This document shows, piece after piece, positions 25,617-26,793 of a stretch of 26,793 bases of DNA (the first letter of the stretch is position 1; the number at the start of each line of letters is the position of its first letter). The translations under genes were made by a program, and so were the position numbers. Below the pieces are notes generated by a model. It did not search any database. It was not told the origin of the DNA and saw only the letters and a program-made list of their open reading frames with translations. Source of the DNA: a bacterium (GTDB lineage: Bacteria > Margulisbacteria > Marinamargulisbacteria > GCA-2716485 > JAYNIM01); assembly GCA_038109055.1 (NCBI GenBank), contig JAYNIM010000002.1, positions 1-26,793 on the forward strand, given 5' to 3'.

Positions 25617-25832
25617 TTAAGCTGTTTTATCTTCAAACAGATCTTCTCTAAGTTGATCTACTATAGTTTTTTGACTTGATGGATTTGAATCCGTAGCATG
25701 TCTATCTAATATCTCTTTTAAAGGATCTATCCTAAACAATGTTCTGGCATCTGAGTTATTAGCGCAAATATTACGGATGCCCCCTACAACATTTATTATT
25801 TCATGAACTGTTGTTGTTGTTGCATTGCCCAT
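25617..25832 (-). pseudogene. Out-of-frame C-terminal fragment of the ARM-like repeat gene
   Basis: Encodes NVVGGIRNICANNSDARTLF, a further copy of the upstream 43-aa repeat, in a different frame. Confidence 0.75.
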
Positions 25833-26345
25833 GCAACAGTTGCTTTTTCTTGAACTGTTGTTGCACTATTTTCCAATTTATTTAACAGATCTTTCACTTC
25901 CTTTGTACCGAACACTTTTCTGGCATCTGAGTTATCTACGCAAATATGACCGATTGCCCCTGCAACATTTTCTCTTTCTTGAGCTATTGTTGCACTATTT
26001 CCCCATTTTATTAACAGATCTTTCACTTTCGTTGTACCGAACATTTTTCTGGCATCTGGGTTTTTAAAGCAAATATTACTGATTGCCCCTGCAACATTTG
26101 CTCTTTCTTGAGCTGTTGTTGCACTATTTCCCCATTTAATTAACAGATCTCCCACTTTCTTTGTCCCGAACATTTTTCCGGCAGCTGGGTTATTAGCGCA
26201 AATATTACAGATTGCCCCTGCAAAACTTGTTCTTCCTTGAACTGTTTTTACACTATTTCCCCATTCAATTAACGCATCTCTCACTACCTTTGTCCCGAAC
26301 ATTTTTCCGGCATCTGGGTTATTAGCGCAAATATTGCGGATTGTT
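25740..26345. repeat. 129-bp tandem coding repeat (about 4 full units plus a partial one)
   Basis: The anchor gattgcccc-like word occurs at 25823, 25952, 26081, 26210 and 26339 (period 129). The next copy is at 25776, only 47 nt away. Confidence 0.9.
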
Positions 26346-26791
26346 TCTGCTATTTTCACATAATTATTTTCCCGTTGTTTTAGCTCTTTTTGCAGCGTTT
26401 TCCCTAAATCTCCCCATTGATTAATAGATGACTCTATTGAGTTTAATATAGCTTGTTTAATACCTATTCTTTCTCTTGATCCACACTGTCTTTTTGCCGA
26501 ACCTCCCTCTAGGCTTTCTGCTCTTCTTTTTCCTCCACCTTGTCTCGGCAGCTGTTGCATAGCTATCTGTTGCTGCTGTTGCATACCTTGCAATTGCTGA
26601 GGCATAGCCTGCATCTGTTGCTGCTCTTGCGTTGGTTGCATACCTTGCAATTGCTGAGGCATAGCCTGCATCTGTTGCTGTTGCTGTTGTTGCATGGCTT
26701 GTATTTGCTGTTGCATCGTTTGCATCTGTTGCTGTTGCTGCTGTTGCATGGTTTGTATTTGCTGTTGCATAGCTTGCAGCTGTTTCTGCTC
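25796..26791 (-). CDS. PolyQ-rich protein with an NLS-like motif and 43-aa ARM-like repeats; 5' end outside the window, frameshifted near the 3' end
   Basis: The frame is open to the window edge (EQKQLQAMQQQ...). It has a Q/M-rich tract, KRRAESLEGGSAKR, and four repeats NIC..N.DA.KMFGT..V.DLLIKWGNSA.T.QER.NVAGAI. Confidence 0.8.
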   Translation of the reverse strand, partial: EQKQLQAMQQQIQTMQQQQQQQMQTMQQQIQAMQQQQQQQMQAMPQQLQGMQPTQEQQQMQAMPQQLQGMQQQQQIAMQQLPRQGGGKRRAESLEGGSAKRQCGSRERIGIKQAILNSIESSINQWGDLGKTLQKELKQRENNYVKIAETIRNICANNPDAGKMFGTKVVRDALIEWGNSVKTVQGRTSFAGAICNICANNPAAGKMFGTKKVGDLLIKWGNSATTAQERANVAGAISNICFKNPDARKMFGTTKVKDLLIKWGNSATIAQERENVAGAIGHICVDNSDARKVFGTKEVKDLLNKLENSATTVQEKATVAWAMQQQQQFMK

Positions 26792-26793
26792 TT
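26550..26793. repeat. Low-complexity CAA/CAG polyQ tract with internal 57-bp and 54-bp duplications
   Basis: gcataccttgcaattgctgaggcatagcctgcatctgttgctg at 26581 and 26638; tgcatggYttgtatttgctgttgcat at 26691 and 26745. Confidence 0.85.

Follow-up and report, generated by a model that had tools for sequence, protein, structure and literature searches.

The window, by which we mean the whole analysed stretch of 26,793 nucleotides (contig JAYNIM010000002.1, positions 1-26793), ends in an armadillo-type repeat gene that is real, restricted to its bacterial lineage, fast-changing and truncated in this population. The gene has a composite anatomy, is contiguous with bacterial DNA, is flanked by a duplication, carries a frameshift near its 3' end and displays an excess of amino-acid changes. 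The explanation that we prefer, at a probability of about 0.4, is that it encodes a host-directed armadillo binder which would be exported and would enter the nucleus of its host, a eukaryote and probably a protist. The source is the 1.8-Mb genome assembly GCA_038109055.1 (93% complete) of an uncultured marine bacterium, the sole member of its family among the genomes compared. It has no assembled 16S gene, and its SecY found matches only to spirochaete proteins at 37-42% identity.

The repeat gene is a single open frame on the minus strand (26791..25796) with 331 codons within the window. Its first part is a Q/M-rich tandem array of 54-bp (18-aa) units (26543..26793, minus strand), which holds 46 Q and 12 M in residues 1-83 of the window frame. 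With 21 Q within 30 residues, compared with 12 in the next unrelated frame, this is the most Q-rich of the 3056 frames examined in the genome. The earlier note on this DNA had described a polyQ tract; at least 75 residues of Q/M-rich sequence are indeed present, but they are built of 18-aa tandem units with a longest uninterrupted Q run of 7 and are not homopolymeric. The window stops at a 100-N scaffold gap (contig positions 26794-26893). The missing 5' end was recovered past this gap, where the array continues and the frame runs for another 127 codons up to a GTG start at contig position 27275 with a Shine-Dalgarno-like sequence. One 141-nt contig from the metagenome run X5 joins both gap flanks with zero bases between them; such a junction would preserve the frame and yield a product of approximately 460 residues, although it is uncertain how many tandem units there are.

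The Q-rich arm is followed by a basic motif, a long N-terminal helix or cap (26357..26482, minus strand; helices 22-55 and 61-74 of the model) and four 43-aa armadillo-type repeats of three helices each (25841..26356, minus strand), which were delimited by a tandem-repeat scan and the predicted model. At the DNA level they correspond to a tandem array with a 129-bp period (25824-26343; 4.0 copies, 87% matches). Identity between the repeats is 78-88% in DNA, whereas only 17-30 of 43 residues (40-70%) are shared in protein, so the earlier description of near-identical 43-aa repeats was right about their length but not about their identity, and the pattern NVAGAIxNI that it quoted is matched exactly in one repeat out of four. 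The recent expansion proposed there fits the DNA identity, and the later divergence among the repeats was mostly non-synonymous. Pfam and NCBIfam searches revealed no catalytic or DNA-binding domain in the repeat protein, and neither a Sec-type signal nor a signal-like hydrophobic stretch was seen in it. The paralogue search that the earlier note had suggested was run on the source genome, and no paralogue was found.

A repetitive segment adjoining a scaffold gap might be eukaryotic DNA misjoined onto a bacterial contig, and a chimeric eukaryotic contig end had been named before as a danger to the interpretation. This is now extremely improbable and largely refuted. The window ends at the gap itself, and a single contig of run X1 (possibly the source run) matches the whole stretch between bioB and the Q-rich start, repeats included, without a single difference, which establishes the continuity with bioB that the earlier note had wished to see confirmed. 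A second X1 contig links the 5' part of the repeat gene to metH on the other side. A contig of run X4, which comes from another study, also links the end of bioB to a repeat (27 letters on the joint side). Furthermore, the GC content of the repeat array (0.37) is close to the genome value, introns are absent and bioB-derived repeats lie on both sides of the gene.

The convergent neighbour bioB (24593..25555, plus strand) encodes a biotin synthase with Pfam Radical_SAM and BATS domains. The repeat gene is bracketed by two copies of a 108-bp direct repeat. Copy 1 (25509..25616, plus strand) consists of the final 47 bp of bioB together with the adjoining 61 bp of downstream DNA. Copy 2 (contig 27400-27507), part of which is covered by a contig of run X8, lies beyond the other end of the repeat gene. 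The copies are 1891 bp apart and align with a score of 107, compared with a maximum of 40 in 2000 shuffles. As they are only 80% identical, the duplication is old. An AT-rich 30-bp element upstream of a 771-aa orphan (24408..24437, minus strand) has a 90% copy at contig 27297-27325, upstream of the repeat gene. This copy ranked first among 1381 upstream regions, and its score was reached in 5 of 2000 shuffles. From these sequences we infer that an old recombination duplicated the 30-bp element and the end of bioB and inserted the gene between them. The element was rejected as a genome-wide regulon motif, its exact core occurring at 2 places only. The orphan itself (window 22058-24373, minus strand) has no Pfam or NCBIfam match and no protein similarity to the repeat gene.

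Some integrative elements duplicate the 3' end of their target gene, and the two bioB-end copies around the 1.9-kb insert resemble this arrangement. However, in contrast to such elements, no integrase or transposase was found among the ORFs of the insert, the copies have diverged to the extent given above, the upstream element was duplicated too and no empty bioB site was seen in relatives. In these relatives, bioB and metH lie on different contigs, and they are too distant for an empty site to be visible. No Rfam family was found in the insert (an isrG match with an E-value of 0.78 is due to chance), and a promoter scan stayed at chance level (7 vs. 6.1). The searches of metagenome, genome and viral contigs for a close locus, and of metagenome contigs for an exact match of the 26-nt bioB-end pattern, found none, although these searches may leave out very near genomes. 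Near metH, at 8,723-8,833 of the extended locus, there is a weak cobalamin riboswitch match (E 0.014, below the gathering score) upstream of a TonB-receptor-like frame.

A frameshift, which the earlier reader had missed, lies near 25820-25833, directly after the fourth repeat. Reading of the sequence and of the contigs of runs X1, X2 and X3 places a deletion junction and a short out-of-register tail with its stop at 25796..25840 (minus strand). The out-of-frame remnant (25617..25832, minus strand), a 71-codon ORF for which no Shine-Dalgarno sequence was seen, comprises what is left of a fifth repeat, now degenerate, and a tail resembling a cap; the repeat was recognised by tblastn at an E-value of 2e-4 and by the family HMM at 0.003. 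X1, X2 and X3 are estuary metagenome runs of one study and are the three runs covering at least half of the stretch; no RNA run was among those listed for it, which has no bearing on whether the gene is expressed. As their contigs span the junction with zero differences, the frameshift belongs to this population. It removes the last repeat and the cap, and the product is therefore a truncated four-repeat form. Meanwhile, in run X4 the DNA from the bioB stop to the repeats is shorter and unlike that of the window, a weak observation with a joint side of only 27 letters.

A sister population is present in runs X4 and X8, which belong to two further studies; in it the start region and the upstream DNA are conserved. 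Approximately 24 N-terminal codons have diverged in X4 at the same length, and nine such codons are visible in X8 with no stop, as judged by eye; run X7 yielded short, divergent pieces only. X4 differs from the window at 54 of 832 bases of bioB, and its repeats are ~90% alike. In the unique part of the repeat gene, the X4 allele has 7 non-synonymous and 3 synonymous codons (11 of the 13 differences listed), compared with 2 non-synonymous and 29 synonymous codons in bioB (31 of the 54 differences listed), so the non-synonymous excess of the unique part over bioB is significant (Fisher p 1.6e-4). Comparison of the four repeats with one another gave 38.5 non-synonymous and 5.5 synonymous changes, with pN/pS of 1.2-4.6. 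It should be noted that this excess is compatible with neutrality (binomial p 0.14), the chance of meeting no stop among 44 changes being 0.15. The observed changes are no more conservative than random ones (mean BLOSUM -0.70 vs. -0.44), and columns conserved in the family tend to have changed less, a weak effect (p 0.22, 0.12 and 0.03 for the top 10, 15 and 20 columns). Meanwhile, 14 of the 38.5 non-synonymous changes fall on eight positions of the third-helix groove (permutation p 0.003), for which we assume the numbering of designed armadillo work; the signal is weakened by the fact that exposed positions vary more anyway. The changes would be explained equally by diversifying and by relaxed selection.

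These data bear on the proposal that what remains in this population is an acquired repeat gene in decay, a relic that drifts neutrally. The frameshift fixed in the contigs of three runs of one study agrees with such decay, as do the insignificant departure of the repeats from neutral expectation, their substitutions being no more conservative than random ones, the basic motif being less complete than in the sister allele and the 3' end differing between populations. Nevertheless, we consider decay unlikely: 331 codons in the window and 127 past the gap are open, the start and upstream DNA are conserved in X4 and X8 while the N-terminal codons diverge without a change of length, the changes cluster on one face and the truncated product is still modelled confidently. 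The preferred reading, a fast-evolving and perhaps nuclear binder directed at the host, also allows that the gene may be decaying in this population.

The AlphaFold2 single-sequence model (pLDDT 87, pTM 0.75) shows three helices per repeat, and the longer model of the truncated product (pLDDT 83, pTM 0.81) leaves the basic motif disordered. In VIA-align, the best match was 7n6g_0A (Z 21.2, rmsd 3.1, 205 aligned), followed by the designed armadillo protein 4rv1_A (Z 20.2, rmsd 3.5, 201 aligned); plakophilin, beta-catenin and importin-alpha were also matched, the top armadillo range being Z 19-21. Since helical repeats reach about 13-14 by arrangement alone, the armadillo scores are above background. 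Foldseek gave no match to the model at E<=0.001. The best PDB sequence match of the family profile was ARMC4 (E 5.5e-4), and in the Atlas search haptophyte armadillo clusters came up at 0.92, the recognition score being low and under its threshold. The ARM-like fold suggested in the earlier note is thus upheld by the models and their top structural matches, and the four repeats are predicted to fold as an armadillo-type solenoid.

Armadillo repeats have ~42 residues, three helices and a conserved Asn in the third helix (PMC4304861, PMC6838082). The repeat protein resembles beta-catenin, importin-alpha, plakophilin, ARMC4 and the designed armadillo proteins in its repeats of 42-43 residues with three helices, its solenoid shape and the third-helix Asn, which is present in three of the four repeats. 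It differs from them in having only four repeats and its own consensus with FGT-x-x-V-R-D, and it is 10-19% identical to the solved armadillo structures. Pfam PF00514 (Arm) has no match above the cut-off in the repeat protein and 0 matches in the source genome, and NCBIfam has none in the protein either. The modelled groove and its variable positions are suggestive of a protein that would bind an extended peptide along the third helices, the target being recognised through exposed positions that differ between repeats.

The case for the nucleus depends on a bipartite-NLS-like motif, KR-x10-KR, which the earlier note had placed at 26489-26530 and which a direct count locates exactly there; with two further residues the feature occupies 26483..26530 (minus strand). 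The bipartite consensus is given as KR-x10-12-K(K/R)x(K/R) in PMC6989684, and the allele of the window fails it in full, position P5 being not basic. According to the same source, the Neurospora protein PAC-3 binds importin-alpha at 0.39 uM through a motif that also lacks P5 (PMC6989684). The motif lies in a predicted disordered linker (pLDDT <50 for model residues 1-25, with no secondary structure). The sister allele of X4 retains all four basic core residues and has a basic residue at P5, which completes the consensus (one contig, depth 4). The P5-free pattern arises in 1.6-2.6% of shuffles of the repeat protein. Across the genome it is found in 54 of the 1398 called genes, compared with 45 in shuffles, and the relaxed pattern that the window motif satisfies is found in 690 of them. 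Full-consensus matches occur in 13 of the 1398 genes, many of them housekeeping, compared with 7.5 in shuffles (maximum 16); genome-wide enrichment of such signals was not supported. Paired basic clusters with polar linkers were also observed in three other unannotated proteins (L048, L059 and L054), two of which fit the full consensus. The full motif with a polar linker in proteins that match neither Pfam nor NCBIfam was thus seen twice with 0.5 expected, a count that 4 of 60 shuffles reach.

A rather unlikely alternative is that the protein is host-directed but not nuclear. It would then act in the host cytoplasm, on a vacuole or on the surface of the bacterium, and its motif would be due to chance or non-functional. 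The incomplete consensus and the lack of genome-wide enrichment agree with this, many cytoskeletal and ciliary armadillo proteins are among the top fold matches and Ruthmannia, a member of the same class, inhabits vacuoles (PMC6784892). The rarity of the motif in shuffles of the repeat protein, the preserved core and completed consensus of the sister allele, and the two other proteins with full motifs and polar linkers argue against this alternative.

A phmmer search with the repeat protein returned 93 proteins at E<=0.001. The top match, a repetitive fish protein of 4752 aa, was dropped as false, and three cluster duplicates were removed for the profile count; the iterated profile then recognised 366 repeats in 85 of 92 proteins. 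The 30 matches looked up comprised two Bodo saltans proteins (CUG87063.1 and CUG87064.1), one from a Pseudomonadota MAG, one from a fish and one from the Picozoa co-assembly COSAG01, the rest being unnamed or without an organism. The B. saltans members share the 43-residue repeat consensus. The family members are long proteins, several of them fused to kinases, and in this they are unlike the repeat protein. Word-index protein searches detected no relative of similar or greater length. No published description of this 43-residue family was found in the literature within search reach, which leaves out most subscription papers. Within the phylum, the family profile matches 8 of 146 genomes, all of this class; some of these matches are canonical armadillo proteins, and only one passed a stricter repeat filter. 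Canonical Arm (PF00514) occurs in 20 of the 146 genomes. One phylum genome (G038) has a cluster of long canonical armadillo frames on contig C25 at ~7500-21300 and 46 Pfam Arm matches in total, either an expanded family or contamination. In another (G044, contig C10), a relative of the repeat family stands beside a proline-dehydrogenase-like frame, and the N-termini of both resemble mitochondrial targeting sequences by eye.

The closest repeat is a 92-aa fragment on a 337-bp contig of the single-cell assembly COSAG01, which is 58% identical and nests among the query's own repeats with a support of 0.989 in a tree of 43 columns that gives no direction of transfer. The assembly has 59% GC and some prokaryotic contamination (PMC8599508); therefore, the fragment may stem from a related bacterium sorted together with the cell. 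In the supplements of that paper, Margulisbacteria are named once, only as a reference taxon (PMC8599508). When a close BioB fragment from the Picozoa assembly was sought, the best 120 of 5365 matches were all 56-71% identical, and such a fragment may have been crowded out.

The source genome has FlhA, and no flagellin was found in it. Twenty of its long proteins were selected manually, 18 out of 57 whose N-termini are rich in S/P/T and 2 on account of their motifs, and 19 of these were scanned with Pfam. Fourteen of the 19 had no match, and the other five matched UCH and NADAR, NADAR, U-box, kinase and DEAD, and FliK, so that three of the 19 carry UCH, U-box or kinase domains. The two NADAR proteins (L051 and L052) are long neighbours on contig C1 (527710-535686), L051 also having a USP-type deubiquitinase domain, and the U-box protein (L062) is encoded on contig C6 (64455-66395). 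Ubiquitin-system domains have no usual substrate in bacteria. The U-box was detected in 20 of the 146 phylum genomes, all in this class. No ATP/ADP translocase was matched, in a search whose positive control had no match too. A single protist cell yielded one member of the class (10.1101/328856), and Ruthmannia lives inside Trichoplax cells (PMC6784892). In the gene content, FlhA without flagellin and the U-box, UCH and kinase genes support a putative eukaryote-associated lifestyle of the bacterium.

This context also bears on a quite improbable explanation, in which the protein is a variable repeat scaffold that acts inside the bacterium or against microbes or phages and has no eukaryotic target. 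The absence of a signal peptide would suit it, and PF00514 also occurs in 2 of 14 free-living controls. ARM-superfamily proteins occur in most bacteria, and their abundance is not predicted by lifestyle (PMC4304861). On the other hand, the kinetoplastid proteins among the family members and the ubiquitin-system domains in the same genome speak against it. According to the preferred explanation, the protein would leave the cell without a signal peptide through the flagellin-less type III-like apparatus of the genome. Its Q-rich arm would act as a low-complexity or coiled-coil interaction region, the basic motif in the disordered linker would bind importin-alpha and, in this population, the loss of the fifth repeat and cap would leave four repeats for target binding.

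The repeat protein would then be a candidate to work like the repeat-domain nucleomodulins, such as AnkH of Legionella. With AnkH and LegAS4/RomA, as described in PMC7542358, it shares a eukaryote-like repeat scaffold and a short motif that mimics an NLS, and the U-box and deubiquitinase genes of its genome are counted as a further likeness. It differs in having armadillo and not ankyrin repeats and no catalytic domain. No report on such proteins in this bacterial lineage was found in the literature searched, which covers few subscription papers. Eukaryote-like repeat effectors are already a known kind; nuclear import, if true, would add the sister phylum of Cyanobacteria to the groups with nucleus-targeting effectors. 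The repeat gene also defines an armadillo subfamily missed by Pfam and offers a concrete candidate substrate for the filament-less type III-like machine of the lineage. A broader and speculative picture, which we think doubtful as a whole, is that the marine bacteria of this class are symbionts or parasites of protists that inject eukaryote-like effectors through filament-less, flagellum-derived export. In it, the gene would encode an armadillo binder targeted to the nucleus, from a repeat family that is undescribed and also occurs in kinetoplastids, with a binding face shaped by an arms race and a swappable slot by bioB, and a close relative of the bacterium would live in or on Picozoa. Such an association, if true, would give this uncultured lineage a named host, Picozoa itself being uncultured.

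Two other features of the window were observed. A 1474-aa protein (13497-17921, plus strand) has weak SecA/helicase-like similarity near its C-terminus, and the kinase protein mentioned above (L063) is fused to a DEAD region similar to that of this protein. The genes at 2384-13180 (minus strand) form a type IV pilus or type II secretion cluster, as recognised by eye from their translations.
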